This document shows positions 1 through 16,674 of a stretch of DNA of 64,000 nt, piece after piece. Origin of the DNA: Propionibacteriales bacterium. Its GTDB lineage: Bacteria; Actinomycetota; Actinomycetes; Propionibacteriales; Nocardioidaceae. The DNA lies in the NCBI GenBank assembly GCA_038242265.1, contig JBBSSH010000003.1:37750-101749 (forward strand), given 5' to 3'. The notes under the pieces are model-generated. The model saw only the letters and a program-made list of their open reading frames with translations. It had not been told where the DNA came from and ran no database searches. Every line of letters starts with the position of its first letter. Position 1 is the stretch's first letter. Position numbers and translations under genes: made by a program.

Positions 1-888
1 GGAGACCACGGAGCCGCCCTGGACGATCTCAGGGTTCTGCCCGCCGTACAGGTTGATCATCATCAGTCCGAACTGGGCTGCCAGACCGGAGAAGGTGCCG
101 AAGGTCATGATGTAAAGGATGGTCATCAGCCAGGTGTCGACGTTGCCGAAGATGTCGAACTGCTGCTTGATGTTGACCTGCATCCGGATCGACTTCAATG
201 TGGCCCAGGCCAGTGCGGCGACGACCACGAAAAGGGGGATCCAGAGGAAGGCCGCGTTCTGGAACCACACAGTCTTGGCCTCAAGACTCGGCACCTGCAG
301 CCGCTGGCTGCCGCCGAGGATGCCGAGGAAGGAACCGGCGATCAGGTACGGCGTCAACAGCTGCACCAGCGAGACGCCGAAGTTGCCGATGCCGGCCTGG
401 AGACCGAGAGCCGTGCCCTGGAGTCGACGGGGGAAGAAATAGGACGTCGAGGGCATGAATCCGGAGAACGCGCCACCGCCGACGCCCGCAAGCAGCGCTA
501 GCACCATGAGCTCCCAGTAGGGAGCGGACGGCTGCATCACCCGCACGCCCCAACCGAGCGTGGGGAAGATCAGGAGCAAGGTGGTGAAAGCGACCATCTT
601 GCGGGTGCCGACGATGGGGGGCAGCACCATCCACACCAGCCGGAACAACCCTGCGGAGAGGCCCGGCATGGCGGCCATCCAGTAGAGCTGGTTCGTGGTG
701 AAGCTGTAACCCAACGCGTTCAGCTTGGGGATGATGGCGCTGGGCAGGAACCACGCGACGAACGCAAGGGTCAGCGCCGCGGTGGTGACGGTCAGGGTCT
801 TCCAGGCCAGCCCGGAATCCCACGTCTTCTCGTCCTCAGGGTCCCAGGACTCCAGCCACTCGCCGGACCTGGTGGGGGTCGTGCTCAT
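1..888 (-). CDS. narK: NarK2/NarU-type nitrate/nitrite transporter (MFS), runs off the left edge
   Basis: Not in the ORF track; read manually from ATG at 888: MSTTPTRSGEWLESWDPEDEKTWDSGLAWKTL..., with nitrate signature GGGAFSGFMPSTSYFFP...GTALGLQAGIGNFG. ATGA overlap with the upstream narK stop. Confidence 0.9.
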   Translation of the reverse strand, partial: MSTTPTRSGEWLESWDPEDEKTWDSGLAWKTLTVTTAALTLAFVAWFLPSAIIPKLNALGYSFTTNQLYWMAAMPGLSAGLFRLVWMVLPPIVGTRKMVAFTTLLLIFPTLGWGVRVMQPSAPYWELMVLALLAGVGGGAFSGFMPSTSYFFPRRLQGTALGLQAGIGNFGVSLVQLLTPYLIAGSFLGILGGSQRLQVPSLEAKTVWFQNAAFLWIPLFVVVAALAWATLKSIRMQVNIKQQFDIFGNVDTWLMTILYIMTFGTFSGLAAQFGLMMINLYGGQNPEIVQGGSVVS

Positions 889-2249
889 CTGTGTGCCTCC
901 TGGGGCTCAGGGGTTGGGGTCTGGTCGGGGTCGGCCGGCAGCTCGATGCGGCCGGCCAGCTCGGGAGACTCGCGATGCAGCATGCGCACCACAGTCCAGT
1001 GCATCCACAGCGCGCACACGGCTGTGAGCAGGAAAAGTACGAAGAAGGTACTCGACGGGAAGCCGGACCAGACCTTCGTGTAAGCGAACAGCGGGGGCAG
1101 GAAGAACCCGCCGAGCCCGCCGAGCATGCCGACCAGTCCTCCGACCGAGCCGACGTTGGTCGGGAAGTACTCCGGGATGTGCTTGTAGACCGCGGCCTTG
1201 CCGATCCCCATCGCGCAGCCGAGGAGCACCACCAGGGTCGTGAACCAGACGATGCCGATGCCATAGGCCAGGTGCTGGGTCTGGGTACCGTCGGGTTCGA
1301 TGATGACGATGTAGCCGTTGGGCATCATCAGGACCCCCGTACTCAGCAGCATCAGTCCGAACGTCCAGTACATGACGCGCCGAGCGCCGAAGCGGTCGGA
1401 GAGGAGACCGCCCACCGGCCGCAGCAACGAGGCGGGGAAGATGAACAGTGCCGTCAGGTAGGCAGCAGTCTGGAGCGATACGTCGAAATTGTCGATGTAA
1501 TAGGTCGGCAGCCAGGCAGCGAGAGCGACGTAGGCGCCGAAGACCGCCACGTAGTAGAGCCCGAAGCGCCAGACCCGCATCTGCTTGAGTGGTTCGAGCT
1601 GCGTGCGTAGCGGCAGCCCGGACCCGGGCAGACGGTCCTGGCGGGGCGCAAGGAACCACGTCGCTGCGGCGGCTGCAACCAGCAGCACCGCGTAGACGAC
1701 AGGCACCAGGCGCCAGCCTCCCTCCACGAACCCGAAGTAGGTCACGCCTGCCGTGCCAACGATCAGCGGCGGCCCGATGAACTTCGTCACCGACGCTCCG
1801 ACATTGCCCGCACCGAAGATACCGAGAGCGAAACCTTGGCGTGAGCGCGGCTGCCATGCGGAGTTCCAGGCGATGCCGGCGCTGAAGGAGTTCCCGGCAA
1901 GGCCGATGAGGAAGGCCAGCACGAGGAGTGCCACGTAGCTGTCGGCCCGTGCCACCAGATACGTCGGTATGGCCGTGGCGAGCAACAGCATCGTCATCAC
2001 CTTGCGGCCACCGATGCGGTCGGTGATCATGCCGACGGGCAACCTCCACAGCGAGCCGTTGAGCACCGCTACGGCGATGATCCAGGAGAGCTGGACCTCA
2101 CTGAGGCCGAACTCCTTGCTGATCGGCTTGCCCAGGATGCCGAACATCAACCACACCGCGAACATCAGGGTGAAGGCGATGCTCGACAGCGTCAGCACGC
2201 GGGTTGCGCCAGAGCGTTCACTCGGGTCGTGGTTCACGTCATCATTCAT
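885..2249 (-). CDS. narK: NarK1-type nitrate/nitrite transporter (MFS)
   Basis: About 12 TM segments with WRLPVGMITDRIGGR, GAGNVGAS, LRPVGGLLSDRFG and GGLVGMLGGLGGF. ATG 2249 has GGAG upstream; the track start at 2282 is probably too long. Confidence 0.9.
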   Translation of the reverse strand: MNDDVNHDPSERSGATRVLTLSSIAFTLMFAVWLMFGILGKPISKEFGLSEVQLSWIIAVAVLNGSLWRLPVGMITDRIGGRKVMTMLLLATAIPTYLVARADSYVALLVLAFLIGLAGNSFSAGIAWNSAWQPRSRQGFALGIFGAGNVGASVTKFIGPPLIVGTAGVTYFGFVEGGWRLVPVVYAVLLVAAAAATWFLAPRQDRLPGSGLPLRTQLEPLKQMRVWRFGLYYVAVFGAYVALAAWLPTYYIDNFDVSLQTAAYLTALFIFPASLLRPVGGLLSDRFGARRVMYWTFGLMLLSTGVLMMPNGYIVIIEPDGTQTQHLAYGIGIVWFTTLVVLLGCAMGIGKAAVYKHIPEYFPTNVGSVGGLVGMLGGLGGFFLPPLFAYTKVWSGFPSSTFFVLFLLTAVCALWMHWTVVRMLHRESPELAGRIELPADPDQTPTPEPQEAHR

Positions 2250-2345
2250 CTTTATCGCTCCATTGCGAGGACCATTCTCCACTAAACAAGTGGGAGGCTA
2301 TACCTGTCTGAAGTGCCCCGCCCAACCGAAAGCACGCTGAGCAGC

Positions 2346-2434: not shown

Positions 2435-3214
2435 ATGGGTAGCGCTTCCCCCGAGCGCGAGGCCGCTCTGACTTCTCCGGTCCGCCGTCGAGTGGTGGAA
2501 CTACTCCGGGATCTGCCGACCGAAGCCGGCGATGAGCAGGGTCGTGGCATGACGGCGCACGATCTGGCGCGTCGCTTGGACCTGCACGTGACCACCGTGC
2601 GATTTCACCTCGACCAACTGATCGCTGCGGAGGTCCTTGAGGCAGAGTTCCTCCGGGGTCGGGTCGGGCGTCCACGAAAGATCTATCGCCTCACCCCCGG
2701 GTCCCCGGGTGACGTCAAGGTCGAGCGGGCGCACGCTGCGCTCACCGAGCTCCTGCTGGAGTCGTGGCAGGAGACGTCCTTCGAGGGCACCACTTCGCGG
2801 GCCCAGGAGGCAGGGGAGCGTTGGGTGCAGAACCACGTGACCCCGTCCTCGACTCCCGCTGCCACCACTGCGGGCGCTTGGTTGGGCAAGGTGGGCCAGG
2901 CACTCGACCTCCTGGCCCCGTGGGGATACACCCGGGAGGTGCGGACTCTCGACGAGGGGCGGACGGTGGAGTTGAATCTCGTCGACTGCCCATTTCTCGC
3001 GCTGGCCCACGCGCATCCTGAGGTCGTCTGCGGAGTCCATCGAGGCCTGCTTGCCGAGGCCATGCGCGCGACGGGTGAGGGCAACGTGGAGGTCGGACTA
3101 CAGCCTTTCGTCGCTCCGGGCCGCTGCCGGGCGACCCTGACCAGGAACGCGGACTTTGCCAGCGACCCAGACGCGGGTCCGGAATCAGCTTCCGGTCCGG
3201 ATGTGAACGAGTGA
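2435..3214 (+). CDS. ArnR-like winged-HTH regulator with C-terminal three-Cys sensor domain
   Basis: HTH (LARRLDLHVTTVRFHLDQL...GRPRKIY) followed by CPF...HPEVVCGVH...PGRC; next to nar genes. Confidence 0.8.
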   Translation: MGSASPEREAALTSPVRRRVVELLRDLPTEAGDEQGRGMTAHDLARRLDLHVTTVRFHLDQLIAAEVLEAEFLRGRVGRPRKIYRLTPGSPGDVKVERAHAALTELLLESWQETSFEGTTSRAQEAGERWVQNHVTPSSTPAATTAGAWLGKVGQALDLLAPWGYTREVRTLDEGRTVELNLVDCPFLALAHAHPEVVCGVHRGLLAEAMRATGEGNVEVGLQPFVAPGRCRATLTRNADFASDPDAGPESASGPDVNE

Positions 3215-3246: not shown

Positions 3247-3948
3247 TCATGAGGAGCGCTCGGTGAGCGGTGGAAGCGTCAGTCGGCATGCGCCCGGTTC
3301 GGCGAAGGGTACGAGCGTGCTTCCATCCGGATCCGAGCCGTACTCGGCCAGGGCTCCACGGACGATGCCGAGGTGCACCGCGCACACCACGTCCGGATGC
3401 CGGTGCGCCGCCTCCAGCAGAGGGCAGTGCGTCAGGCGCACTTCATCGGGACTCTCGACGGCGGGCTCGGGCGTGAAGCCCAAGTCATCCAGCAGGGTCA
3501 ACACGTGGCCCCTCGCCGGTCCGGGGGACAGCGGCACCGCACCCCGATCGCGGGCCAACTCCCGACCCCACTCCTCACCGGCTTCAGCTGCTGCCTGGGT
3601 CGGGTCGTCGTTCGTGCGGGAGATGACTGCCGCCAGGGCTGCTGCCAGTCCGGCGTATTCGGAACGGCTCGGCTCGTCCTGGGCAAGTTCGTACAGCCAC
3701 GCCGGGCGACCCCGACCGTCCGGCTGGGCCCGGTGTCGGGTCACCATGCCGCGGCGAACGAGAGCGGTGAGATGCTCGCGCAAGGTGTTCTCATGCAGGC
3801 CGGTGGCGCTCACCAGGCTCGCGAGCGTCAGCGGCTCGGGTTGGCCGCGTAGCCGCTCCACGACTGCTGTTCGTGCTGGCGACAGGGGTGGCAAGGACGC
3901 AGTTCCGCGGGGCCCGTACCCCGGCTTGGTCACCTGATTATTTTCCAC
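3247..3948 (-). CDS. Second ArnR-like winged-HTH three-Cys regulator
   Basis: LHENTLREHL...GRGRPAWLY followed by CPL...HPDVVCAVH...PGAC. TACACT -10-like hexamer 7 nt before the GTG suggests a leaderless transcript. Confidence 0.8.
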   Translation of the reverse strand: MENNQVTKPGYGPRGTASLPPLSPARTAVVERLRGQPEPLTLASLVSATGLHENTLREHLTALVRRGMVTRHRAQPDGRGRPAWLYELAQDEPSRSEYAGLAAALAAVISRTNDDPTQAAAEAGEEWGRELARDRGAVPLSPGPARGHVLTLLDDLGFTPEPAVESPDEVRLTHCPLLEAAHRHPDVVCAVHLGIVRGALAEYGSDPDGSTLVPFAEPGACRLTLPPLTERSS

Positions 3949-4014
3949 GGAGCTAAGTGTAGTAAATATTGCGTCTGGTCACCACAGTGGGGCCGGGAGA
4001 GAGGAATCAGGGAC

Positions 4015-4818
4015 ATGGACGCTGTCTTCATCGCTTCGAACGAAGCCGACGCCCGCGCAGCAGAGGTGGTCGCGGACCGTCGCGCCCAGATCTCGGGCGC
4101 GCTGGCGGTCAAACTGGAGGGCATCATCTCCGGCGTGCGCACCGCCCAGTCGCCGGATGCGGACGCCCGATCGAGCGCGGTGCGCTGGTGCCGTTCCGTC
4201 CTCGTCCCGCAGGCACTCGACGAGCAGGCGACTCTCTATGGTGCGGCTGCTGAGGCGCCCGGAGCCCGACTCCTCGTTGAAGCAATGGTGAGCGAACGTC
4301 AGTGGATGCTGGGTCTGATCGACGACCTGGAGAACGCCGCCGACCCGTTCGGGGCCGCTCTCGCCGCCCATGCCCTCCGCGTTCTCTTCGCGAGCCACGT
4401 CGCCAAGGAAGACGCCCAGATCCTGCCGCTGCTCCTCGGGAGCGCCGATGTGTCGGTTGCCGCGCTGGTGCGTGACACCCCGGGATCGGCAGCGGAGCCG
4501 GAGGAATCGTCGGCGGGTGGCGGTTGTGGATCGTCCGAGCATTCCTGCCAGTGCAACGAGTCCGAGTCGTCCTCGCTGCCGGAACTCGATGCACGTGAGA
4601 TTCCCCATGCGATCCGACACGCGACCATTTTCGGTGCTCTGGACGGTCTGGCCCCCGGCCAAGGCCTGGTGCTGGTCGCACCGCACGACCCGCTGCCTCT
4701 TCTGGCGCAACTCGAGGCGCGCTCCCCGGGAGCGTTTGTCGTGGACTACCTCCAGAGCGGCCCGGAGGCCTGGCGATTGAGTATGATCCGTAGTGCCGAT
4801 GTCGGCCGTGATTCCTGA
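4015..4818 (+). CDS. Hemerythrin-like domain + DUF2249 domain protein
   Basis: N-terminal helical domain ending SHVAKED..ILP; C-terminal LDAREIPHAIRHATIFGALDGL..G..LVLVAPHDPLPLL (DUF2249). Confidence 0.75.
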   Translation: MDAVFIASNEADARAAEVVADRRAQISGALAVKLEGIISGVRTAQSPDADARSSAVRWCRSVLVPQALDEQATLYGAAAEAPGARLLVEAMVSERQWMLGLIDDLENAADPFGAALAAHALRVLFASHVAKEDAQILPLLLGSADVSVAALVRDTPGSAAEPEESSAGGGCGSSEHSCQCNESESSSLPELDAREIPHAIRHATIFGALDGLAPGQGLVLVAPHDPLPLLAQLEARSPGAFVVDYLQSGPEAWRLSMIRSADVGRDS

Positions 4819-4963: not shown

Positions 4964-7900
4964 GTGACTCAGAAGCCGGGCATGGACGGAGCGATCACTG
5001 ACGCTCTCGTACGCAGTCGCCGATACTTCACCAAGGCAAAGGTGTCACCGGACCTGCGCACGCTCACGAAGGTGGGCGGGCGCGAGGCCGACGACTTCTA
5101 CCGTGATCGCTGGAGCCACGACAAGGTCGTGCGTTCCACCCACGGTGTCAACTGCACCGGTTCCTGCTCGTGGAAGGTCTACGTCAAGGACGGGATCATC
5201 ACCTGGGAGACCCAGCAGACCGACTATCCCTCGGTCGGGCCCGACTCCCCGGAGTACGAGCCCCGCGGCTGCCCTCGTGGAGCGGCCTTCTCCTGGTACA
5301 CCTACTCACCCACGCGCGTGCGCTACCCCTACGTGCGCGGCGTGCTCCTGCAGATGTACCGCGAGGCCAAGTCGCAGCATGGGGGCGACCCGGTCAAAGC
5401 GTGGGCTCACATCGTCGACAACCCAGCCCGAGCCAAGGTCTACAAGTCGGCCCGTGGCAAGGGAGGACTGGTCCGCGCGAGTTGGGACGAGGCCGTGGAG
5501 ATAGCTGCGGCGGCCCACGTGCACACGATCCAGAAGTGGGGCCCGGACCGTGTGGCCGGGTTCTCACCCATTCCGGCGATGTCGATGGTCTCGCATGCCT
5601 CCGGAGCTCGGTTCATGAACCTCATCGGTGGCTCGATGCTGAGCTTCTACGACTGGTACGCCGACCTTCCGGTGGCCTCGCCGCAGGTTTTCGGCGACCA
5701 GACCGATGTCCCCGAGTCCGGCGACTGGTGGGACGCGGGCTACCTCATCATGTGGGGCTCCAACGTCCCGGTGACACGCACCCCGGATGCCCACTGGATG
5801 ACCGAAGCGCGCTATCGCGGACAGAAGGTCATCGCAGTCGCACCGGACTACGCCGACAACGTCAAGTTCGCCGACGAGTGGTTGCCCGCCAACCCCGGCA
5901 CCGATGGCGCGCTGGCGATGGCAATGGGACACGTGATCCTCAAGGAGTTCTTCGTCGATCGCGACACTCCCTACTTCCTCAACTACAACAAGCGCTACAC
6001 CGACCTGCCGTTCCTGGTGAAGATCGATGTGGATGAGCACGGTGTGCACCGCCCCGGCAAGTTCTTGACCGCCGAAGATCTCGCCGCGCACCGTGATGAG
6101 GAGAACGCAGCCTTCAAGACCGTCCTGATCGACGCGGCCACTGAGGCACCCGTCGTGCCCAACGGAAGCCTGGGCCACCGGTTCGGTCCGGATGGCGAAG
6201 GCCGGTGGAACCTCGATCTCGGCGACATCGACCCCCGCCTGACTCTCCACGAGGCGGACGCCGAATCTGTTGAGCTGGAGCTCCCGCGCTTCGACAACCC
6301 CGACGGCACGGCCCACATCCTTCGACGGGGGGTCCCGGTGCGCACTGTCGAGGGCCACCTGGTGACGACGGTGATGGACCTCATGCTCGCCCAGTACGGC
6401 GTTGGCCGCCCGGGTCTTCCGGGGGAGTGGCCCACCGGCTACGACGACGCAGAGGCACCCGGCACCCCCGCATGGCAGGAAACCTTCACCGGCGTACCGG
6501 GAGAGGCCGCGGCCCGTATCGGACGCGAGTTCGCCCAGAACGCCGAGGATTCCAAGGGTCGCTCGATGATCATCATGGGGGCCGGTACCAACCACTGGTT
6601 CCACTCCGACACGATCTATCGCACCTTCTTGGCCCTCACCACCCTGACTGGCTGCCAAGGCGTCAACGGAGGCGGTTGGGCCCACTACGTCGGGCAGGAA
6701 AAGGTCCGTCCCATCACCGGCTACAACCAGGTCGCCAACGCGCTCGACTGGACCCGGCCGCCGCGCAACATGATCCAGACGGCCTACTGGTATCTCCACA
6801 GCAACCAGTTCCGTTACGACCAGTTCGGGGCAGACACCCTCTCGGCGCGTACGGGCGAAGGCCAACTGGCGGGCAAGAGCACCGCCGACGTGATCGCACA
6901 GAGCGCGCGGATGGGCTGGTCACCGTCCTACCCGACGTTCGACAAGAATCCGCTCGAGATCACCGAGGAAGCCACTGCGGCTGGGGTCAGCGTGGCCGAC
7001 CACGTGGTCTCCGGGCTCAAGGACGGCTCGCTCAACTTTGCCTGTGAGGACCCGGATGCGCCGGAGAACTTCCCGCGGATCCTCTCGATCTGGCGGGCTA
7101 ACCTGCTCGGCTCGTCTTCCAAGGGCAACGAGTACTTCCTCAAGCACCTGCTGGGCACTGATTCGTCGGTGCGAGCCACCGAGACTCCCGAGGCCCTGCG
7201 TCCGCGTGACATCACCTGGCATGAGGAAGCGCCGGAGGGCAAGCTCGATCTGTTGATGACGCTGGATTTCCGTCAGACGTCCACCACGATCTTCTCGGAC
7301 GTGGTCTTCCCGGCCGCCACGTGGTACGAGAAGCACGACCTCAACACGACCGACATGCACCCGTTCGTCCACTCCTTCAACCCGGCAATCTCTCCGCCGT
7401 GGCAGACCCGCACCGACTGGGACACCTGGCGTGCCATCGCGGCCAAATTCAGCGAGCTTGCCGGACCGCGTCTCGGTGTACGCCGCGACGTGGTCGCGGT
7501 CCCGCTGATGCACGACACCCCCGATGCCATGGCCAACCCGCACGGGGTGGTCAAGGACTGGAAAACCGGCGAATGCGAGCCGATCCCGGGTGTGACCATG
7601 CCCAAACTGGTCGAGGTCGAGCGCGACTACGGCGCGGTCAGCGACAAGATGAATGCGCTCGGCCCGCTGGTCGAGAAGCTCGGCGCCACCACCAAGGGCG
7701 TGACGTTCGAGCTCAGCAAGCAGGTCGACTACCTGCGCGCCAAGAACGGTGCCGTCCGCGGTGGCGTCGCCGACGGTCGCCCCTCCCTGGTGCGTGACGT
7801 GCACGTGTGCGAGGCGATCCTTGCCATGTCGGGCACAACCAACGGACACCTGGCAGTGCAGGGCTTCAAGCAGTTGGAGAAGCGCACAGGTCACCAGATG

Positions 7901-8674
7901 CACGACCTGGCTGCCGAGCACGAGGGCAAGCAGATCACCTTCGCCGACACCCAGGCTGCTCCGGTACCGGTGATCACCTCACCGGAGTGGTCGGGCTCGG
8001 AGGCCGGTGGCCGGCGCTACTCCCCGTTCACCATCAACGTCGAGCGGCTCAAGCCCTGGCACACCCTGACCGGGCGCCAGCACTTCTATCTCGACCATGA
8101 CTGGATGACCGAGTTGGGGGAGGGGTTGCCGGTGTTCCGTCCGCCGCTCAACATGGCGGCGCTGTTCGCCGAGCCGGCGATCGGTGACGTGGCTGACGGC
8201 GAGGGAGCGGCGGTGGAAGGCGTGACCGTGCGTTATCTGACCCCGCACAACAAGTGGTCGATCCACTCCGAATACCAGGACAACCTGTTCATGTTGTCGC
8301 TCTCGCGCGGTGGACAGAACATCTGGATGAGTGACCGCGACGCGGCCAAGGTCGGTGTCGAGGACAACGACTGGATCGAGGCAGTCAACCGCAACGGTGT
8401 CGTCGTGGCCCGGGCCATCGTCTCCCACCGGATGCCCGAGGGCACCATCTACATGCACCACGCCCAGGACCGACTGATCGATGTCCCCATCGCAGAGACC
8501 TCGGGCAAGCGTGGCGGCATTCACAACTCGCTGACCAGGCTGCTCATCAAGCCCAGCCACCTGATCGGTGGCTACGCCCAACTCACCTGGGCCTTCAACT
8601 ACATCGGCCCGACCGGCAACCAGCGCGACGAGGTGACGGTCATCCGTCGCCGCTCGCAGGACGTGGAGTACTGA
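4964..8674 (+). CDS. narG: Respiratory nitrate reductase alpha subunit
   Basis: 1236 aa; RSTHGVNCTGSCSW...EPRGCPRG FS0 motif, FYDWYADLP, HYVGQEK, YLTPHNKWSIHS. Confidence 0.99.
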   Translation: MTQKPGMDGAITDALVRSRRYFTKAKVSPDLRTLTKVGGREADDFYRDRWSHDKVVRSTHGVNCTGSCSWKVYVKDGIITWETQQTDYPSVGPDSPEYEPRGCPRGAAFSWYTYSPTRVRYPYVRGVLLQMYREAKSQHGGDPVKAWAHIVDNPARAKVYKSARGKGGLVRASWDEAVEIAAAAHVHTIQKWGPDRVAGFSPIPAMSMVSHASGARFMNLIGGSMLSFYDWYADLPVASPQVFGDQTDVPESGDWWDAGYLIMWGSNVPVTRTPDAHWMTEARYRGQKVIAVAPDYADNVKFADEWLPANPGTDGALAMAMGHVILKEFFVDRDTPYFLNYNKRYTDLPFLVKIDVDEHGVHRPGKFLTAEDLAAHRDEENAAFKTVLIDAATEAPVVPNGSLGHRFGPDGEGRWNLDLGDIDPRLTLHEADAESVELELPRFDNPDGTAHILRRGVPVRTVEGHLVTTVMDLMLAQYGVGRPGLPGEWPTGYDDAEAPGTPAWQETFTGVPGEAAARIGREFAQNAEDSKGRSMIIMGAGTNHWFHSDTIYRTFLALTTLTGCQGVNGGGWAHYVGQEKVRPITGYNQVANALDWTRPPRNMIQTAYWYLHSNQFRYDQFGADTLSARTGEGQLAGKSTADVIAQSARMGWSPSYPTFDKNPLEITEEATAAGVSVADHVVSGLKDGSLNFACEDPDAPENFPRILSIWRANLLGSSSKGNEYFLKHLLGTDSSVRATETPEALRPRDITWHEEAPEGKLDLLMTLDFRQTSTTIFSDVVFPAATWYEKHDLNTTDMHPFVHSFNPAISPPWQTRTDWDTWRAIAAKFSELAGPRLGVRRDVVAVPLMHDTPDAMANPHGVVKDWKTGECEPIPGVTMPKLVEVERDYGAVSDKMNALGPLVEKLGATTKGVTFELSKQVDYLRAKNGAVRGGVADGRPSLVRDVHVCEAILAMSGTTNGHLAVQGFKQLEKRTGHQMHDLAAEHEGKQITFADTQAAPVPVITSPEWSGSEAGGRRYSPFTINVERLKPWHTLTGRQHFYLDHDWMTELGEGLPVFRPPLNMAALFAEPAIGDVADGEGAAVEGVTVRYLTPHNKWSIHSEYQDNLFMLSLSRGGQNIWMSDRDAAKVGVEDNDWIEAVNRNGVVVARAIVSHRMPEGTIYMHHAQDRLIDVPIAETSGKRGGIHNSLTRLLIKPSHLIGGYAQLTWAFNYIGPTGNQRDEVTVIRRRSQDVEY

Positions 8675-8675
8675 C

Positions 8676-10421
8676 ATGCGTGTGATGTCGCAGATGGCCA
8701 TGGTCATGAACCTGGACAAGTGCATCGGGTGCCACACCTGCTCGGTGACGTGCAAGCAGGCGTGGACCAACCGGACCGGCACCGAATACGTCTGGTTCAA
8801 CAACGTCGAGACCCGCCCCGGGCAGGGATACCCGCGTACCTATGAGGACCAGGAGAAGTGGCAGGGCGGCTGGGAACTCAACAAGCGCGGACGCCTCACC
8901 CTCAAAGCAGGTGGGCGCTTCAAGAAGCTCGCCACGATCTTCTCCAATCCCAAGATGCCCTCGATCCAGGACTACTACGAGCCCTGGACCTACGACTACG
9001 CGACCTTGACCGACGCGCCGGCCCAGGAACACACGCCTGTTGCGCGCCCGAAGTCGTTGCTCACGGGCAAGAACATGAAGGTCGAGTGGTCCTCCAACTG
9101 GGACGACAACCTCGGCGGCTCGAAGGCCACCCTGGAACACGACCCGATGTTGGCCAAGATCGCCGACAAGGTGAAGTTCGAGTTCGAGCAGAGCTTCATG
9201 TTCTACCTGCCGCGGATCTGCGAACACTGCCTGAACCCTTCCTGCGCAGCTGCGTGCCCCAGCGGTGCGATCTACAAACGCGAGGAGGACGGCATCGTCC
9301 TGGTCGACCAGGACCGGTGCCGTGGGTGGCGGATGTGTGTGACCGGATGCCCGTACAAGAAGGTCTACTTCAACCACAAGACCGGCAAGGCCGAGAAGTG
9401 CACGTTCTGCTTCCCGCGCATCGAGGTGGGCCTGCCCACCGTGTGTGCGGAGACCTGCGTCGGTCGGCTGCGCTACATCGGCCTGATCTTCTATGACGCA
9501 GACCGTGTGCTTGAAGCAGCGTCGGTGGAGAACGACCACGACCTCTACGAGGCCCAGCGATCGATCCTGCTCGACCCGAACGATCCCGAGGTGATTGCTG
9601 CCGCCGAACGCGACGGCATTCCCCACGACTGGATCGAGGCCGCACAGCGCTCGCCGATCCACGCACTGATCAACGTCTTCAAGGTCGCGCTACCCCTCCA
9701 CCCGGAATACCGCACCATGCCGATGGTCTGGTACATCCCGCCGCTGTCGCCGGTCGTCGACGTGGTCAGGGACACCGGCTATGACGCGGAGGACAAGGGC
9801 AATCTCTTCGCCGCCATCGACGCGCTCCGTATCCCGATCGAATACCTCGCCGAACTCTTCGCCGCCGGCGACGTCACGGTGGTCGACGGTGTGCTGAAGA
9901 AACTGGCAGCGATGCGCTCCTACATGCGCGACATCAACATGGGTCGTGAGGCCGACGCCTCGATCTGCGAAGCGGTCGGCATGAGCGAGGAGGAGATGTA
10001 CGACATGTACCGACTCCTGGCCATCGCCAAATATGACGAGCGCTACGTCATCCCATCAGCGCACTCCGAGCAGGCACACTCCCTGGAGGAGCTGGGCACC
10101 GAATGCGCGGTCGCTGGTTATGGCGGCGGGCAGCAGGGGCTCTTCGGTGAGGGTTCGGGCAAGCCCGTCCCGATCGCGGTGGAGAATTTCCAGATGCTCC
10201 AGAACCGTCAGACCGCCGACACCATGGCCTCGCCCGATGACAAGTCGAGCCGGGTAAATCTGCTCAACTGGGACGGCAAAGGCGCGCCTTCAGGGATGTT
10301 CCCGCCACGTTCGGATGTCGCCGACTCCCTCCCGGACGGCTCCGTGATCGACACCAGCCATGACGGTGAGACCGGTCCGGGCGGCACGGGTGGACTGACC
10401 GGAGGGGCGGATCTTCGATGA
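8676..10421 (+). CDS. narH: Respiratory nitrate reductase beta subunit
   Basis: MVMNLDKCIGCHTCSVTCK, CEHCLNPSCAAACP, CRGWRMCVTGCPY, KCTFCFPR. Confidence 0.99.
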   Translation: MRVMSQMAMVMNLDKCIGCHTCSVTCKQAWTNRTGTEYVWFNNVETRPGQGYPRTYEDQEKWQGGWELNKRGRLTLKAGGRFKKLATIFSNPKMPSIQDYYEPWTYDYATLTDAPAQEHTPVARPKSLLTGKNMKVEWSSNWDDNLGGSKATLEHDPMLAKIADKVKFEFEQSFMFYLPRICEHCLNPSCAAACPSGAIYKREEDGIVLVDQDRCRGWRMCVTGCPYKKVYFNHKTGKAEKCTFCFPRIEVGLPTVCAETCVGRLRYIGLIFYDADRVLEAASVENDHDLYEAQRSILLDPNDPEVIAAAERDGIPHDWIEAAQRSPIHALINVFKVALPLHPEYRTMPMVWYIPPLSPVVDVVRDTGYDAEDKGNLFAAIDALRIPIEYLAELFAAGDVTVVDGVLKKLAAMRSYMRDINMGREADASICEAVGMSEEEMYDMYRLLAIAKYDERYVIPSAHSEQAHSLEELGTECAVAGYGGGQQGLFGEGSGKPVPIAVENFQMLQNRQTADTMASPDDKSSRVNLLNWDGKGAPSGMFPPRSDVADSLPDGSVIDTSHDGETGPGGTGGLTGGADLR

Positions 10422-11158
10422 AGTTGACACTTCCCAAGGGCATGGGAGCGAAACGACTGCGGGGGCTGAACGAAGCAGAGTTGACGATCGCTTGGCAGTC
10501 GGCCTCGCTGTTGCTCGACTATCCGGACGAAACCCTGCCTCACAGACTTGAGTTGGTGCTCCAGGGAGTGACCGATCTGCCGGACCACGTGGGTGGACCG
10601 CTGGCCCAGTGCGCTGCCAGATTGGCCGAGGTGGAACTGGGGGAACTGCAGCAGGACTATGTCGAGACCTTCGACAACCGCCGGCGACACAACCTCTTCC
10701 TCACCTACTTCGCTCACGGCGACACCCGCAAACGTGGTCTGGCCCTGCTGAGGTTCAAGCAGACCTACCAACAGTTCGGGGTCGACCTCGACGAGTCGAC
10801 TCCCGCCGGAGCCGAGTTGCCCGATCACCTGTGCGTGGTGCTGGAGTTCGCCGCCACGGTCGACCAGGACGCTGGCCGCCAGCTCATCCTTGACCACCGG
10901 GCTGGCCTCGAACTCTTACGCCTCTCGTTGGGCAACGTGGGTTCGCGCTGGGCCGGAGCCATCCAAGCAGTGACAGCCACGTTGCCTGCCCTCGGCGGTG
11001 ACGACATGGAAGCGATCCGTCGTCTCGCTGCCGAAGGTCCTCCTGACGAGGAGGTCGGCCTCACTCCCTACGCCACCCCCGCTTTCGATCCGGGCCCGGC
11101 GTCGCCGAGCTCGTCGCCCACGGCACTGCCCATGCCGTCGTTCCCAGGAGCTCGCTGA
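10418..11158 (+). CDS. narJ: Nitrate reductase molybdenum cofactor assembly chaperone
   Basis: LLLDYPD, QDYVETFD...LFLTYFAHGDTRKRG, ELPDHLCVVLEF; ATGA-coupled to narH. Confidence 0.95.
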   Translation: MKLTLPKGMGAKRLRGLNEAELTIAWQSASLLLDYPDETLPHRLELVLQGVTDLPDHVGGPLAQCAARLAEVELGELQQDYVETFDNRRRHNLFLTYFAHGDTRKRGLALLRFKQTYQQFGVDLDESTPAGAELPDHLCVVLEFAATVDQDAGRQLILDHRAGLELLRLSLGNVGSRWAGAIQAVTATLPALGGDDMEAIRRLAAEGPPDEEVGLTPYATPAFDPGPASPSSSPTALPMPSFPGAR

Positions 11159-11160
11159 CC

Positions 11161-11889
11161 ATGGACATTTTCTTGTGGGTGATCATTCCCTACCTCTGCA
11201 TCGCCACCTTCTGGGTCGGTCACTTCTGGCGCTACCGCTACGACAAGTTCGGCTGGACCACCCGCTCCAGTCAGCTCTACGAAGTGCGCCTGTTGCGTCT
11301 GGGATCGCCCCTGTTCCACTTCGGCATGCTCGGTGTCGTCGGTGGGCACGTCATCGGTCTGTTGGTGCCGCAGTCGTGGACCGACGCTGTCGGTATCAGC
11401 CATGAGGCCTACCACGTGGCAGCGATCGGGGGTGGGCTGGTCGCTGGTGTGATGACGGTGGTCGGCATGGCGATCCTGATCTATCGTCGCCGCACGGTCG
11501 GGCCGGTCTTCTCTGCCACGACCGTGATGGACAAGGTGATGTACGCCTTCCTCGCCACCGCCATCCTCCTCGGCATGTGGAACACGATCGCGGGTGGCAT
11601 CCTGACCATCGGTGGTGAATACAACTACCGCGAGGGCGTCTCGGTCTGGTACCGCTCCTTCCTCGCCTTCCAGCCTGATGCTGCGTTGATGGCCAAGGCT
11701 CCTCTGGGGTTCCAGCTGCACGCCCTGGTGGCCTTCGGGCTGTTCGCGTTGTGGCCCTTCACCCGGCTCGTGCATGTCTTCAGCGCTCCGGTGGGTTACG
11801 TGACACGTCCCTACATCGTGTACCGCAGCCGTGACGAAGCACTGGGCAGCCACCGACCCAAGCGCGGTTGGGACCGACTCTCCTCGTGA
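11161..11889 (+). CDS. narI: Respiratory nitrate reductase gamma subunit (cytochrome b)
   Basis: RYRYDKFGWTTRSSQ, FHFG...GH, FQLHAL...PFTRLVH heme ligands. Confidence 0.98.
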   Translation: MDIFLWVIIPYLCIATFWVGHFWRYRYDKFGWTTRSSQLYEVRLLRLGSPLFHFGMLGVVGGHVIGLLVPQSWTDAVGISHEAYHVAAIGGGLVAGVMTVVGMAILIYRRRTVGPVFSATTVMDKVMYAFLATAILLGMWNTIAGGILTIGGEYNYREGVSVWYRSFLAFQPDAALMAKAPLGFQLHALVAFGLFALWPFTRLVHVFSAPVGYVTRPYIVYRSRDEALGSHRPKRGWDRLSS

Positions 11890-12353
11890 CCTCCGAGCCC
11901 TGGTCGTCCGCCGCCGACATCCGTGTCGGTCGGCGGTGCCAGGACCACCAGGAGACTTCCTTGACCGTCCAAGAGGTCATGGTTCGCCATCCCAAGGTGT
12001 TGCCAGCCAGCGCTTCGCTGGATGAGGCGAGGCTGATGCTGTCGGATGATCACGTGCACATCGTGCTGTTGAACGATGGCCCGCGGCTGGTCGGGACCTT
12101 GACCCGCGGCGACCTGCCGTCCGACCGCTCCCCAGGACGAGCACTTACGTGGTCCACGCTCATCGACCGGACCGTACTTCCTGATGTCCCGGCCGCCGTG
12201 GCACAGCGTCATCTGGTCGAGCACGGATTGCGCCGGCTGGCGGTCGTCGACGACGGCGATCACCTGATGGGCCTGCTGTGCCTGAAGCGACGTATGACCG
12301 GTTTCTGCTCCGACTCGGATGTCGATTCGCGCGCCAGTGGCCGTCCCTCCTAG
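11886..12353 (+). CDS. CBS domain-containing protein
   Basis: TVQEVM..P..L...ASL.EA..M...HV..LL..LVG.LTRGDL and LRRLAVVDD..HLMGLL; GTGA overlap with the narI stop. Start could also be ATG 11979. Confidence 0.75.
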   Translation: MTSEPWSSAADIRVGRRCQDHQETSLTVQEVMVRHPKVLPASASLDEARLMLSDDHVHIVLLNDGPRLVGTLTRGDLPSDRSPGRALTWSTLIDRTVLPDVPAAVAQRHLVEHGLRRLAVVDDGDHLMGLLCLKRRMTGFCSDSDVDSRASGRPS

Positions 12354-12364
12354 AAAGGAACCGC

Positions 12365-13513
12365 GTGGGAGACCCCGTCGAAATGGGCGATGGCCTTGCC
12401 CGGCCGGACCAGCGGTCCACCTACGACGCTCTGCTTGCTGCCTGTCCGGTGACGTCCGAGGATGGCCGATGGCTGGTCCTGGGCCATGCAGAAGTCGTGC
12501 AGGCCGCACTCGATCCCACGAACTTCTCAAGTCGCGTGACCGATCGTCTGGCCATCCCCAATGCCCTCGACGGGGATGAGCACGCTGCCTATCGCGCTGT
12601 CGTGGATCGCTACTTCACCGAGGAAGCGGTGGACGGTCAGGAGGAACAATGCCGCCGCCACGCCATCGCAATCGTCGATGCGCTGCCCCGCGAGGTCACG
12701 GTCAAGACGATCGGCAGTATCGGGACCCCCTACGCAGTGCGGTCGCAGTCGACGTGGCTCGGGTGGCCGGAGGAACTCGAGGCTGAACTGGTTGCGTGGA
12801 TAGCGGACAACCACGGTGCCACCAGGTCGGGTGACAGAGCACTCATGGCGGCAGTGGCCGACCGGTTCGACCGGATGATCCATGGGCTGCTGCAGTCACG
12901 TCGAGACCAGCCTGCCAGTGATGTCACCGCCTGCCTCATGAACGACACCGTGGACGGTCGGCGCCTCACAGACCCGGAGATCGTCTCCATCCTGCGCAAC
13001 TGGACCGCAGGGGATCTCGGATCCTTGGCAACGTCGGTGGGCGTGCTGGTCCATTTCCTCGCCACGCACGCTCAGGTCCAGGAAACGTTGCGTGAGATCT
13101 CACAGAAGAGGGACGCACGCGCGATGGAGGCCGCCATCGAGGAGATCCTGCGCATCGATGATCCGTTCGTCGCAAACAGGCGCGTGACGACTCAGCCGGT
13201 CGACATCGGAGGCGTGCTCCTCCCGCAAGGCGCACTCGTCCTGCTGAACTGGACCGCTGCCAATCGCGACCCTTCGGTCTTTGTTGACCCGGACCGTTTC
13301 GACCCGGTGGGGAATGCAAAGACAAACCTGGTCTTCGGTGCCGGCCCTCACGTCTGTCCCGGGCGTGGGCTGACGCTGATGGAGTTGCGCGTGCTGCTCG
13401 AGGAACTGCTGGGTCGGACCACCTGGATCGACCCAGCTCCGGACCGCCCGGCGGTTCGTGAGATGCCCCCGGTGGGCGGTTGGGCCCGGGTACCCGTCGT
13501 GCTGCGCGGCTAG
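12365..13513 (+). CDS. Cytochrome P450 with atypical I-helix
   Basis: FGAGPHVCPG heme motif, EEILR (ExxR), DPDRFDP, HxxxR. SD AGAAAGGAA precedes GTG 12365. Confidence 0.92.
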   Translation: MGDPVEMGDGLARPDQRSTYDALLAACPVTSEDGRWLVLGHAEVVQAALDPTNFSSRVTDRLAIPNALDGDEHAAYRAVVDRYFTEEAVDGQEEQCRRHAIAIVDALPREVTVKTIGSIGTPYAVRSQSTWLGWPEELEAELVAWIADNHGATRSGDRALMAAVADRFDRMIHGLLQSRRDQPASDVTACLMNDTVDGRRLTDPEIVSILRNWTAGDLGSLATSVGVLVHFLATHAQVQETLREISQKRDARAMEAAIEEILRIDDPFVANRRVTTQPVDIGGVLLPQGALVLLNWTAANRDPSVFVDPDRFDPVGNAKTNLVFGAGPHVCPGRGLTLMELRVLLEELLGRTTWIDPAPDRPAVREMPPVGGWARVPVVLRG

Positions 13514-15030
13514 GGACGGCGACGCTTGCGTTCCGCGAGGTACTCCAGGGGTTCCGGCTCCGGTCCGAACCTCTGGTTGCACGTCCACCCTGCACAGGTG
13601 AGGAGTTCCGATCGTCTGATGTCCAGAGAGTTCTGCACGTCGACATAACGGGGATCGTCGAAGAGATTGATCATCTCGTCAGGGTCACGCGCCCGGTCGT
13701 AGAGGAACCCGTCACTGCCGTCGGTGCCGTAGAGGTAGCGCGCCGTGCGAACACCCCGGTGGGACCAGCCGTCACCCAGAGTGCGGCCCGTCTGGACCAG
13801 AGTGGTGTCACGGAAGGTCTCGGTCTGCGACTGCCCACGCAGGGTGGGATCCAACGAAGTGCCGTCCACCGACCACGCGGGGGAGACACCCGCCAGCGCA
13901 GCAAAGGTGACCGGTAGATCGACCAGGGAGACGGGAAGGTCGGAGGACGTGCCAGCCGCGATGCCCGGGCCGCGGATCACGAGAGGGATCCGTAGAGCCT
14001 CATCGGTCAGCACGTCCTTGCCGATGAATCGGTGTTCCCCCAAGGAGTAGCCGTTGTCGGAGGTGAAGACGATGAAGGTGTCGTCCAGCACCCTTTCGGC
14101 TGCCAACGTGTCCACGAGCGTGCCCACGGCGCGGTCGACCGCTTGAAGGGACTGTAGACGGGCGCGATTCTCGGCGGCGACATCTGCTCGTGACACCTTC
14201 GGACGATGGCGCAGATAGGCGGGTTGGTCTCCGATGTCCTGCTCATTGAACGCAGGATCCTCGAACGAGGTGGGTGTGGCGCGAAGAAATGCATCCTGAT
14301 CGCGGGGGTCGGCAGGTGGAAGACCCCGAACCCCGCCCGGGCTGATCCGGTAGTGAGGGGCGAGATGCCAGGAGTAGATCACGAAGGGATCACCCGATGC
14401 GGCGAATTCGCGGACGTACTCGTTGGTGCGGTTCTCGATCACGTGAGTGATGTAACTGTCGGTGTACTCCCGGGGCTCGCCATCTCCGGTCATGGTGAAG
14501 TTCACGTAGTCATAGGTGCCTCGCGTCAGTGCGTCCCACCTCGACCAGCCGGACGGACGGACATCCTGGGGGCCATAGCCGTTGAGGAACTTCCCCACGA
14601 AACCGGTGCTGTAGCCGGCATCGCGGAACCAGGCGATGGCCTCCTGCGAGGGATCCAGCGCCGCGAAGCCACCATGCGCACCCCGGTTGTGCTGAACACC
14701 GTTGTTCTGGGCGTACTGACCGGTCGACAACTCTGCCCGTGCCGGGCAGCAGAGCGGATGCGGAGAGATCGCAGCGGTGAACTCGGCCCCGGCCTCGGCC
14801 ACCAGACGACGGGTGATCGGCATGGCCGCGAGGTCATCCTCACGCATGTCATCGGTGAGGACGAAAACCACGTTGGGACGATTCGAGGAGCTCGCGCCGC
14901 CCGACTGTGCGGCGTTCACGATCCGGCCGGAACCGGTGGGCCGACCTCCGTCATTGGCGATGGCCGTCGTGAGCGCAGCAACCAGAACAATGAGCAGAGC
15001 CGCCGAGAGCGATTGCACCCACGCACGCAT
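13510..15030 (-). CDS. Secreted or membrane-anchored sulfatase (N-acetylglucosamine-6-sulfatase-like)
   Basis: N-terminal hydrophobic segment, PNVVFVLTDD, formylglycine motif CCPARAELSTGQY, FTSDNGYSLGEH. Start uncertain. Confidence 0.88.
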   Translation of the reverse strand: MRAWVQSLSAALLIVLVAALTTAIANDGGRPTGSGRIVNAAQSGGASSSNRPNVVFVLTDDMREDDLAAMPITRRLVAEAGAEFTAAISPHPLCCPARAELSTGQYAQNNGVQHNRGAHGGFAALDPSQEAIAWFRDAGYSTGFVGKFLNGYGPQDVRPSGWSRWDALTRGTYDYVNFTMTGDGEPREYTDSYITHVIENRTNEYVREFAASGDPFVIYSWHLAPHYRISPGGVRGLPPADPRDQDAFLRATPTSFEDPAFNEQDIGDQPAYLRHRPKVSRADVAAENRARLQSLQAVDRAVGTLVDTLAAERVLDDTFIVFTSDNGYSLGEHRFIGKDVLTDEALRIPLVIRGPGIAAGTSSDLPVSLVDLPVTFAALAGVSPAWSVDGTSLDPTLRGQSQTETFRDTTLVQTGRTLGDGWSHRGVRTARYLYGTDGSDGFLYDRARDPDEMINLFDDPRYVDVQNSLDIRRSELLTCAGWTCNQRFGPEPEPLEYLAERKRRRP

Positions 15031-15318
15031 GTAGTAGTTCCTCGCCGGTACCCGGGGACCATCGTCGCTTCCCCGTTGAGGCGCCAGACTAGGTCGTCGC
15101 AACTGGTCTCCCCAAAGCGACACCTGTCATGGTGAGCGACCGTTTGCATTCCGAGGTGCGAATGGCCGTTCACGTACCATGCACACACTGCGGCTGTGGC
15201 GAGTGAGGCCGCTCTGGATACGCTGCCGCTTCCCCACAACGAGACAAGGAACATCCGCGCCCTTCATGGACGAGAGCCAAACCAGCCGCACGGCCGCACC
15301 GAACCACAGGTGTGAGTC

Positions 15319-16674
15319 GTGACGCCCTTTCTGCTTCTGCTCGCCTCTTTGGCGCTCATCGCCGCGTGCGGACTGTTCGTCGCCGCTGAGTTCTCCTTCG
15401 TCACCGTGGACCGTTCGACGGTCGAACGTGCGGCTGCTGCGGGTGACGAGGGCGCTCGAGGGGTGCAACTGGCGCTGAAGTCACTGTCCACCCAGCTCTC
15501 GGGCGCGCAGGTCGGCATCACCGTGACCAATCTTGCGATCGGTTTTCTGGCCGAGCCGGCCATCTCCCAGCTGATCGACGGGCCACTGGAAGCCGCAGGT
15601 GTGCCTGGCGGCGCGGTGGCACCGCTGTCGTTGTTCCTCGGCCTTCTCATCGGAACTGTCCTCACCATGATCTTCGGGGAGATGGTGCCCAAGAACATCG
15701 CCATTGCGCGGCCGTTGCAGACAGCGCGGACGACCCAGAGCTTCATGCGTGGTTTCACCGCGCTCGCCAGCGGGCCCATCCGCGTCCTGAACGGCTCGGC
15801 CAACCTGCTGGTCCGACGGCTGGGCATCGAGCCTCAGGAAGAACTCCGCTCCGCACGCAGCTCTCAGGAGCTGGCCTCACTCGTCCAACGCTCGGCCGAT
15901 CAAGGCACGCTCGATCATGAGACTGCCGAACTGGTCGAGAGGTCCGTGGAATTCGGTCAGCACACCGCCGGCGAGATCATGACCCCCCGCGTGCGCACCA
16001 CCACCGTGGAAGAGGCCGATCGTGTCTCGACCGTCATCGAGCTGGCGCGTCAGACGGGGCACTCCCGCTTCCCGGTGCTCGACTCCGAGGACACCGTCGT
16101 GGGCACGGTGCACGTCAAACATGCCGTGGCGGTGCCGATCCACGAACGGGCCACGACGCGCATCAAGCACGTCATGGTCAAACCGGTGGTCGTACCGGAC
16201 AGCTTGCGTCTGGACCCGCTGCTCGCGTTGTTACGTGCCGACGGGTTCCAGATGGCCATCGTGCTCGATGAGTACGGCGGACACGCAGGCATCGTCACGC
16301 TCGAGGACGTGGTGGAAGAAATTGTCGGCGACATCTCCGACGAGCACGACCGGTTGGGCTCCCGCATCCGCCAGCGCCGCGACGGGAGTTGGACCCTGTC
16401 GGGCCTCCTACGCCCCGACGAGGTGGAGGACGCGACCGACATCGAGCTCCCCGACCACGAGGACTACGACACGGTGGCAGGACTGGTGATGCGTCATCTC
16501 GGCAAGATCCCGGTGCGGGGGGACCGCATCGAGGTGGCCGTGCCCGATCGGAGCGAGCTCAACGATGCACGCGAGCGCCTGGTCACCTTGACGGTGGAAC
16601 GCATGGAGGGACTGCGCATCGACCGTCTCGAGTTGCGCCTGGTGAACGACGCTGCCACCGAGGTCACCCCATGA
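15319..16674 (+). CDS. HlyC/CorC (CNNM-CBS-CorC) family membrane protein
   Basis: FVAAEFSFV, GEMVPKNIAI, MTPR, HSRFPV, DEYGGHAGIVTLEDVVEEIVG, C-terminal CorC_HlyC domain. Confidence 0.92.
   Translation: MTPFLLLLASLALIAACGLFVAAEFSFVTVDRSTVERAAAAGDEGARGVQLALKSLSTQLSGAQVGITVTNLAIGFLAEPAISQLIDGPLEAAGVPGGAVAPLSLFLGLLIGTVLTMIFGEMVPKNIAIARPLQTARTTQSFMRGFTALASGPIRVLNGSANLLVRRLGIEPQEELRSARSSQELASLVQRSADQGTLDHETAELVERSVEFGQHTAGEIMTPRVRTTTVEEADRVSTVIELARQTGHSRFPVLDSEDTVVGTVHVKHAVAVPIHERATTRIKHVMVKPVVVPDSLRLDPLLALLRADGFQMAIVLDEYGGHAGIVTLEDVVEEIVGDISDEHDRLGSRIRQRRDGSWTLSGLLRPDEVEDATDIELPDHEDYDTVAGLVMRHLGKIPVRGDRIEVAVPDRSELNDARERLVTLTVERMEGLRIDRLELRLVNDAATEVTP

Follow-up and report, generated by a model that had tools for sequence, protein, structure and literature searches.

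The formation of nitrous oxide (N2O) by the fungal cytochrome P450 P450nor has been described as uniquely eukaryotic, and TxtE as the only other P450 that uses nitric oxide (NO) directly (Higgins et al. 2018). In the same study, P450nor was derived from CYP105 and was found to coexist with flavohemoglobin. A review from 2022 names TxtE and RufO as the only NO-using P450s. For nitrate respiration, the DUF2249 proteins DrpA and DrpB have been described as accessory genes of the Thermus nar cluster, and a comparative study of nitrogen oxide (N-oxide) regulons lists no P450 among the regulon members. A report from 1972, known through its citation, places a P450 in anaerobic nitrate-grown Rhizobium japonicum. 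Here, a 64,000-nucleotide (nt) stretch of contig JBBSSH010000003.1 from a Propionibacteriales bacterium (the window) was analyzed, in which a P450 gene follows the genes of a respiratory nitrate reductase. A full-text literature search returned no paper linking a P450 to NnrS, NsrR, narGHJI, or bacterial denitrification clusters, and we found no description of this P450 family in the searchable literature.

The window holds an extended nitrate-respiration operon that consists of a promoter/operator, a hemerythrin-DUF2249 gene, narGHJI, a CBS-pair gene, and the P450 gene, as listed in Table 1. All positions are those of the window, and the operon genes are on the plus strand. The four nar genes are all present, in order, on one strand. 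The first-pass annotation of this DNA had read narI, the CBS gene, and the P450 gene as one transcript, and the junctions it described are there: the narI stop TGA (11887-11889) shares bases with the CBS-frame GTG at 11886 (GTGA), and the CBS stop (12351-12353) is separated from the P450 GTG at 12365 by 11 nt that contain the Shine-Dalgarno sequence AAAGGA. The narI/CBS overlap is kept as ATGA (six loci) or GTGA (one locus) in all seven orthologous nar-CBS-P450 loci with narI present, and the gap between the CBS and P450 genes is 10-11 nt in 8 of 9 loci. A rival start for the CBS gene is a TTG at 11961, which is preceded by AGGAGA. A consensus scan detected no promoter-like or terminator-like sites between narI and the end of the P450 gene. 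The window also has no ferredoxin or reductase gene near the P450 gene, in agreement with the first-pass annotation.

The P450 belongs to a family whose genes recur as accessory members of clusters for nitrate respiration, denitrification, and NO stress in Actinomycetota and Pseudomonadota. An association of WT(A/V)G(D/E)LG-type P450s with nar and nir genes had been put forward as a check on the first reading, and it was seen both in gene neighborhoods, across two phyla and several architectures, and in genome content. In a pattern scan with one genome per species, 258 genomes contained a relative of the core type, and 80 loci were fetched. With two further loci and the window, this gave 83 core loci, 25 of which have nar, narK, nirK, or hemerythrin-DUF2249 genes no more than 10 kb from the P450 gene; some rows are near-duplicates, and these counts somewhat overstate independence. 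Four arrangements were found. In arrangement A, seen in the window and eight or nine other loci, the order is hemerythrin-DUF2249, (narK), narGHJI, CBS, P450. In arrangement B (five loci), the hemerythrin-DUF2249 gene is followed directly by the P450 gene, with a divergent helix-turn-helix (HTH) regulator, and a NirK fusion protein is encoded nearby in three of the five. Arrangement C consists of narK, narK, and P450 with a convergent nirK, and in arrangement D the P450 gene adjoins nirK, regulators, and hemerythrin-DUF2249. On a maximum-likelihood tree of the P450, the linked genes are mostly in one clade dominated by Nocardioidaceae (23 of its 37 rows). Arrangements A and B interleave on this tree, with at least four and at least five changes needed, and therefore the linkage was kept through rearrangements. 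The 58 unlinked core loci are mostly from Propionibacteriaceae, Demequina, Isoptericola, and Solirubrobacterales. Pfam tallies of the genes flanking 57 unlinked loci showed no recurrent neighbor and no recurrent ferredoxin or reductase; the commonest neighbors were MFS transporters (7), COX15/CtaA (4), and YceI (3).

A second, sister subfamily is large and mostly proteobacterial, with about 43% identity and the I-helix sequence RNWTVGEL[GS]T. Among 87 sister loci, 49 were informative, having at least 6 kb of flank, and 17 of these carry nar, qNor, NnrS, Rrf2/NsrR-like, DUF2249, or nirK genes. On plasmids of Paraburkholderia fungorum and Caballeronia, the order is narGHJI, a peptidyl-prolyl isomerase gene, a nitrate/nitrite transporter gene (narK), a small open reading frame (ORF), the P450 gene, and a gene for a PAS protein, with NnrS, Rrf2, hemerythrin, and DUF2249 genes alongside. 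In Microvirga, the P450 gene lies between genes for NnrS, an MFS transporter, a Crp/Fnr regulator, pseudoazurin, and a second NnrS. The Ciceribacter gene and nirK are divergent, and nnrS comes after the P450 gene in Shinella and Ensifer. Actinobacteria have members of this kind as well: a 43%-identical homologue in a related genome, with the I-helix RNWTVGELST, is 1.2 kb from qNor on the opposite strand, and a P450 gene divergent from qNor was found in a second actinobacterial contig. RefSeq names the proteobacterial homologue simply "cytochrome P450."

Genome content was compared in a sample of 301 genomes from the same family as the host, 16 of which carry the P450, using Fisher tests that are not corrected for phylogeny. 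The narG gene was present in 14/16 carriers compared to 129/285 other genomes (p = 8e-4), and a nirK-like gene in 12/16 compared to 53/285 (p = 4e-6). qNor is rare in this sample (20/301 genomes) and was found in 4/16 carriers. Of the 65 nirK-positive genomes, 49 have no recognizable qNor.

The operator provided a further link to denitrification. An AT-rich element with the consensus CCGATTATTTTCCACGGAGnnnAGTGTAGTAAAT precedes the hemerythrin-DUF2249 gene in 16/16 loci with the upstream region covered, and in the window it sits between a divergent HTH_20 regulator gene and the hemerythrin-DUF2249 gene. A matrix built from these sites had only two matches in the 3.7-Mb host genome, one in the window and one at C14:85388. 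The latter is intergenic and lies upstream of a gene cluster for a membrane protein, a NirK fusion, hemerythrin, and ScdA/RIC. Since the two sites belong to the nar and nirK operons, the P450 of arrangements A and B stands behind a promoter/operator that, in the host genome, is shared only with the nirK operon. This placement supports a predicted co-expression of the P450 with nar. The motif was not found upstream of stand-alone P450 genes. A homologue of the regulator at 3247..3948 is divergent from hemerythrin-DUF2249 in 18 loci. We infer both the protein that binds the element, for which the divergent HTH_20 regulator is the candidate, and the signal to which it would answer.

The P450 passes the gathering threshold of Pfam p450 (86.6 bits; cut-off 22.8). 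Its heme Cys and ExxR had been described as kept, and the Cys loop FGAGPHVCPG and the ExxR sequence EILR are indeed intact. Cys331 is invariant in 120 core homologues and is found in 119/120 sequences of the sister set, and E260 and R263 are invariant in all 240. The I-helix reading WTAGDLGS at 13001-13024 was likewise correct, and NWTAGDLGS is invariant in 120/120 core homologues (66-79% identity). The core I-helix is AGDLGS and that of the sister subfamily is VGEL[GS]T; the canonical (A/G)Gx(D/E)T(T/S) is absent from both, and there is no adjacent [DE][TS]. At least 97% conservation was seen at 136 positions among the core homologues, and 71 positions, including RNWT-G-L and many in the F, G, and I helices, are invariant across the two subfamilies. 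The N-terminus (M/V)GDP(V/A)E and the Shine-Dalgarno sequence of the gene are conserved. Judged by their sequences, these P450s form a compact, strongly conserved family whose B-C loop is shortened and in which the I-helix RNWT[AV]G[DE]L[GS][ST] replaces AGx[DE]T. The AlphaFold2 model (predicted local distance difference test score, pLDDT, 80.7) shows the usual fold of class I P450s, with F and G helices, by our own assignment, joined by a very short link, a two-residue F/G loop. The closest solved structures by sequence are CYP113A1/EryK, AryC, CYP125, CYP107X1, CYP143, and EryF, at about 26-30% identity.

In many actinobacteria and proteobacteria, the relatives have nitrate, nitrite, and NO genes as neighbors, and therefore the P450 probably handles an N-oxide such as NO and not oxygen. 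With moderate confidence, we favor an O2-independent heme-thiolate enzyme that would act on NO or a related N-oxide as an accessory to nitrate respiration or denitrification. This reading is supported by the operon structure, the neighborhoods, the genome content, the operator, the lack of a recurrent redox partner, and the absence of the canonical acid-alcohol pair with the heme motifs intact. In the proposed mechanism, the P450 and Nar would be produced at the same time, under low oxygen and in the presence of nitrate, nitrite, or NO, and the P450 would work without a dedicated ferredoxin system and without O2. The cytoplasmic enzyme would use its ferric heme to bind NO, or a close N-oxide (e.g., nitrite, nitroxyl, or hydroxylamine), and then convert the ligand, the most likely reaction being the reduction of NO to N2O, as in fungal P450nor. 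The outcome would be protection of iron-sulfur and molybdenum enzymes from NO produced by Nar and NirK. The host genome contains qNor, RIC, and a globin-domain ORF (possible Hmp), and any role of the P450 with NO would therefore be accessory to these. A wider proposal is tentative and, in our judgment, doubtful as it stands: P450s with RNWT[AV]G[DE]L[GS][ST] may be a widespread bacterial counterpart of P450nor, evolved independently of CYP55. They would be soluble, partner-independent NO reductases, or other enzymes that form N-N bonds or convert N-oxides, and would add to the detoxification of NO and the release of N2O by actinobacteria and proteobacteria of soil and wastewater, many of which have nirK without a recognizable nor gene.

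Several observations weigh against an N-oxide function. No specific likeness of the P450 to P450nor or TxtE was found, which weakens one analogy on which the first-pass annotation had drawn. The top Foldseek matches are the ordinary class I P450s EryK, AryC, CYP107X1, CYP143, CYP142, and CYP125, and the 50 matches listed include neither a P450nor nor a TxtE chain; the fold comparison was rejected as a link to either enzyme. A P450nor chain is also absent from the 60 PDB sequence matches listed, and judged by these match lists the P450 is probably not a member of CYP55, for which 40% identity or more and descent from the CYP105 lineage are conventionally required. Compared to the PDB matches, the B-C loop has lost about 12 residues, and residues 60-68 are of low confidence in the AlphaFold2 model. 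The earlier claim that the acid-alcohol pair is lacking holds in the canonical register only, as an invariant acid (D/E217) and an invariant hydroxyl (S/T220) stay in the I-helix motif of both subfamilies, and O2 activation in a shifted register may thus be allowed for. The premise behind that claim was partly right. P450nor does lack the acid, but it keeps the I-helix Thr, and EryF, an oxygenase without the Thr, shows that oxygenase chemistry is possible when this residue is missing.

The distribution of the family also provides arguments against this function. About two thirds of the loci have no N-oxide neighbor, and in nearly the whole Propionibacteriaceae-type clade the P450 gene stands alone. 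The co-occurrence statistics are uncorrected for phylogeny. Within the nirK-positive genomes, the P450 was found as often in those with qNor (3/16) as in those lacking it (9/49), and it therefore does not fill in for a missing NO reductase. That role was rejected on this ground and because the host genome already has qNor; a role as a substitute for a missing flavohemoglobin was not supported, given the globin-domain ORF in the host genome, which has RIC in addition. Finally, the CBS protein, which had been suggested as an adenylate-sensing partner, accompanies the P450 in only 10/83 loci. It is therefore a lineage-specific addition and not a general partner.

Another possible explanation, which we consider unlikely though not lightly dismissed, is an ordinary O2-dependent class I monooxygenase that acts on an organic substrate (e.g., a quinone, lipid, or tetrapyrrole) required by nitrate-respiring cells under micro-oxic conditions. 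Its ferredoxin and reductase would be encoded elsewhere, as they are for many bacterial P450s, and protons would be delivered by the shifted D/E217...S/T220 pair or by the substrate itself, as in EryF. The intact heme motifs, the class I fold, and the retained acid and hydroxyl residues all fit such an enzyme, as do the nearest structures (all oxygenases or coupling enzymes), the many loci without an N-oxide neighbor, and a Microvirga gene near ubiD/U32/SCP2 genes of O2-independent ubiquinone synthesis. However, it is hard to explain why an enzyme that requires O2 would be coupled to narGHJI and be found in nirK, qNor, and NnrS clusters of two phyla. No biosynthetic or catabolic partner gene recurs, and this whole family, which is large and old, has another sequence in place of the canonical acid-alcohol pair. 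Highly improbable, and likewise in need of O2, is a biosynthetic P450 like TxtE and RufO that would nitrate or nitrosate an aromatic metabolite with O2 and NO from denitrification. NO would be available in this setting, and the literature found names no bacterial P450s other than TxtE and RufO as NO users, but no NOS, nonribosomal peptide synthetase, or other biosynthetic genes were present in any neighborhood examined. NCBIfam gave sub-threshold matches only, and TIGR04458 (TxtE), the second-best at 65 bits, is far under its cut-off of 500.

The signaling genes near some P450 genes could instead point to a non-catalytic or slow heme-thiolate gas sensor or NO buffer that signals to adjoining proteins, like H-NOX or NosP with neighboring kinases. 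A PAS protein follows the P450 in Paraburkholderia and Caballeronia, a dCache-PAS histidine kinase and a GerE-type regulator are encoded 16 nt downstream in Noviherbaspirillum, and Microvirga-type loci have a Crp/Fnr regulator. Five nar-CBS-P450 loci have a DUF4118 membrane protein with an EINDSLVQ helix, and the CBS pair is itself a regulatory module. Such a sensor seems improbable to us, since these neighbors differ by lineage and are missing from most loci, including the window, and since the 71 positions invariant across both subfamilies would fit a defined substrate pocket. To our knowledge, no P450-fold sensor has been described. We give hardly any credence to the idea that the P450 is a hitch-hiker, placed behind nar by chance, with the association reflecting shared ancestry of a few denitrification islands. 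Although several linked loci are near-identical (L018/L055; L041/L043/L076) and plasmids or islands often carry the denitrification clusters in question, unrelated architectures occur in Actinomycetota, Alphaproteobacteria, and Betaproteobacteria, the arrangements interleave on the tree, the translational coupling is conserved, and the enrichment is seen at the genome level. By a rough estimate, a random gene would lie within 10 kb of such genes in about 1-2% of cases, compared to the 30-35% observed.

If the P450 does turn over NO, it would be an unrecognized NO sink or N2O source in actinobacterial and proteobacterial denitrifiers. It would also be a second, independent example of O2-free P450 chemistry. 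Whatever the substrate, the gene can usefully serve as a new marker of clusters of N-oxide genes. This large bacterial P450 family is tied physically and statistically to nar, nirK, qNor, NnrS, and NO-responsive regulators. Besides the 258 species genomes of the core set, the family includes thousands of metagenome proteins. Cultured carriers are available in Nocardioides islandensis, N. bigeumensis, N. panacisoli, Paraburkholderia fungorum, and Caballeronia sp. SBC1/SBC2.

Table 1. Positions of the extended nar operon, the P450 motifs, and the genes upstream of the operon in the window.
Feature	Position	Strand	Evidence
Second narK-type copy, truncated	1-888		
narK-type MFS (major facilitator superfamily) nitrate/nitrite transporter	885..2282	-	Pfam MFS_1; clusters with narK genes adjoining nar or P450 in other loci
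Second HTH_20 regulator, Cys-containing C-terminal part (earlier label: ArnR-like)	2435..3214	+	Pfam HTH_20; homologue in 14 loci
Divergent winged-helix regulator (HTH_20/ArsR-like), candidate operator binder	3247..3948	-	Pfam HTH_20, HTH_IclR
Conserved AT-rich promoter/operator CTGATTATTTTCCACGGAGCTAAGTGTAGTAAATATTGCG heading the hemerythrin-DUF2249 gene	3934..3973	+	40-nt element
Hemerythrin-DUF2249 fusion, likely operon gene 1	4015..4818	+	Pfam DUF2249 8e-26, Hemerythrin 1.6e-5
narG, 1236 aa (amino acids)	4964..8674	+	ORF; 81-91% identity to narG of related genomes
narH	8676..10421	+	ORF; clusters with narH of other loci
narJ	10418..11158	+	Pfam Nitrate_red_del
narI	11161..11889	+	Pfam Nitrate_red_gam, 5.7e-89
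CBS-pair protein	11886..12353	+	Pfam CBS, two stretches, 5.8e-14
Cytochrome P450, RNWT[AV]G[DE]L[GS][ST] family, 382 aa	12365..13513	+	Pfam p450
I-helix signature RNWTAGDLGS	12995..13024	+	WTAGDLGS part = 13001-13024
ExxR (EILR, E260-R263)	13142..13153	+	
Heme-thiolate loop FGAGPHVCPG (Cys331)	13334..13363	+	

The next gene past the P450 is a convergent sulfatase gene (13510-15123, minus strand). The P450 stop (TAG, 13511-13513) and the sulfatase stop overlap in the palindrome CTAG (13510-13513), and no terminator-like structure was found between the two genes. Downstream of the sulfatase gene, at 15319-17735, are two adjoining CNNM/CorC-type genes with CBS domains (15319-16674 and ~16389-17735); the small CBS protein encoded in the nar operon is not related to them. 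This small protein has two CBS motifs by Pfam. It was considered as a relative of M. tuberculosis Hrp1, and this was dropped because its closest solved structures in the PDB are generic CBS pairs only.

In these Nocardioidaceae, NirK is a fusion protein of 896-924 aa in which a long multi-pass membrane domain and a cupredoxin-like domain are joined to the NirK core, as seen in the host genome at C14:80220-85460 (outside the window), in L076, and in 10 other loci. The cluster of the host genome also encodes a 373-408-aa membrane protein with no Pfam match, hemerythrin, and a ScdA/RIC protein.

Other genes were found at particular core loci. In five nar-CBS-P450 loci of other Nocardioides (L024, L026, L027, L029, L042), a membrane protein of about 233 aa is encoded on the same strand about 1.1 kb past the P450 start, and L015:11184-11879 is probably the same protein. 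It has a weak DUF4118 match and no ATPase domain, its gene is not in the window, and in our own reading its helix EINDSLVQ may be a HisKA_3-like segment in which Asn takes the place of the phospho-acceptor His. The locus L033 (G167:C3) has narH, narJ, narI, CBS, and P450, and narG was not detected at the expected place (tblastn, 40% coverage; genome search at E<=1e-200), where there are no N runs; narG of this metagenome-assembled genome (MAG) may be disrupted. In 12 loci of the Propionibacteriaceae-type clade (L049, L050, L054, L056-L059, L061, L063-L065, L068), a TAnnnT box, e.g., TCGTATCCTCGTGCCATG, ends about 7 nt before the P450 ATG and no Shine-Dalgarno sequence is present, which suggests that these P450 genes may be leaderless and independently transcribed. 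In the stand-alone group with MarR next to the P450, YceI and Nramp genes recur nearby, and Nocardioides sp. JS614 (L013:11535-13779) has a YjjI-like glycyl radical enzyme and a radical SAM activase just downstream of the P450. In a deep clade (L089, L091, L092, L094), a COX15/CtaA heme A synthase gene is immediately upstream of the P450 gene (~1.2 kb) on the same strand; three of these loci are labeled Solirubrobacterales/Conexibacter and one is an unclassified actinomycete MAG.

In the sister subfamily, the small ORF upstream of the Burkholderiaceae P450 has no Pfam or NCBIfam match, and for this reason it was dropped as a nucleotide-binding analogue of the CBS protein; its RefSeq label is "ribonucleotide reductase subunit alpha." The P450 homologue of Ensifer canadensis pT173e (L190:10001-11136) matches in two pieces that abut at 10879, which suggests a frameshift or a sequencing error. 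A KefB/KefC-like Na_H_Exchanger-TrkA_N gene is near the proteobacterial P450 gene in L100, L105, L106, and L138, four loci whose link to N-oxide genes is otherwise weak or absent.

Among known systems, EryF (CYP107A1) and other P450s with a non-canonical I-helix belong to the best sequence and fold matches of the window P450 and also have no conserved Thr. EryF, however, is an O2-dependent hydroxylase of a polyketide cluster with substrate-assisted proton delivery, whereas the window family has a different, invariant I-helix motif and a denitrification-cluster setting. TxtE and RufO, both bacterial P450s of the class I type, use NO, and the weak NCBIfam match is to TxtE; unlike TxtE, the window P450 has no NOS gene or biosynthetic cluster beside it, and its context is respiratory and not one of secondary metabolism. 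In its genomic behavior, it resembles the accessory NO-stress proteins NnrS, hemerythrin/RIC-YtfE, the DUF2249 proteins DrpA/DrpB, Hmp, and NorVW, being a dispensable, patchy gene beside nar/nir/nor and NO-responsive regulators in many lineages, with a different fold and cofactor. It differs from fungal P450nor (CYP55) in its best PDB matches (CYP113, CYP125, CYP107, and CYP143; P450nor itself derives from CYP105), in the I-helix Thr, which P450nor keeps, and in its truncated B-C loop, a region that in P450nor (with the B' helix) forms a positively charged NADH channel. The two nevertheless agree in being soluble heme-thiolate P450s in a setting of nitrate/nitrite dissimilation, with no ferredoxin partner needed by P450nor, and in the loss of the canonical I-helix acid. 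P450nor coexists with flavohemoglobin and does not replace it (Higgins et al. 2018), and the host genome of the window P450 likewise has a globin-domain ORF.

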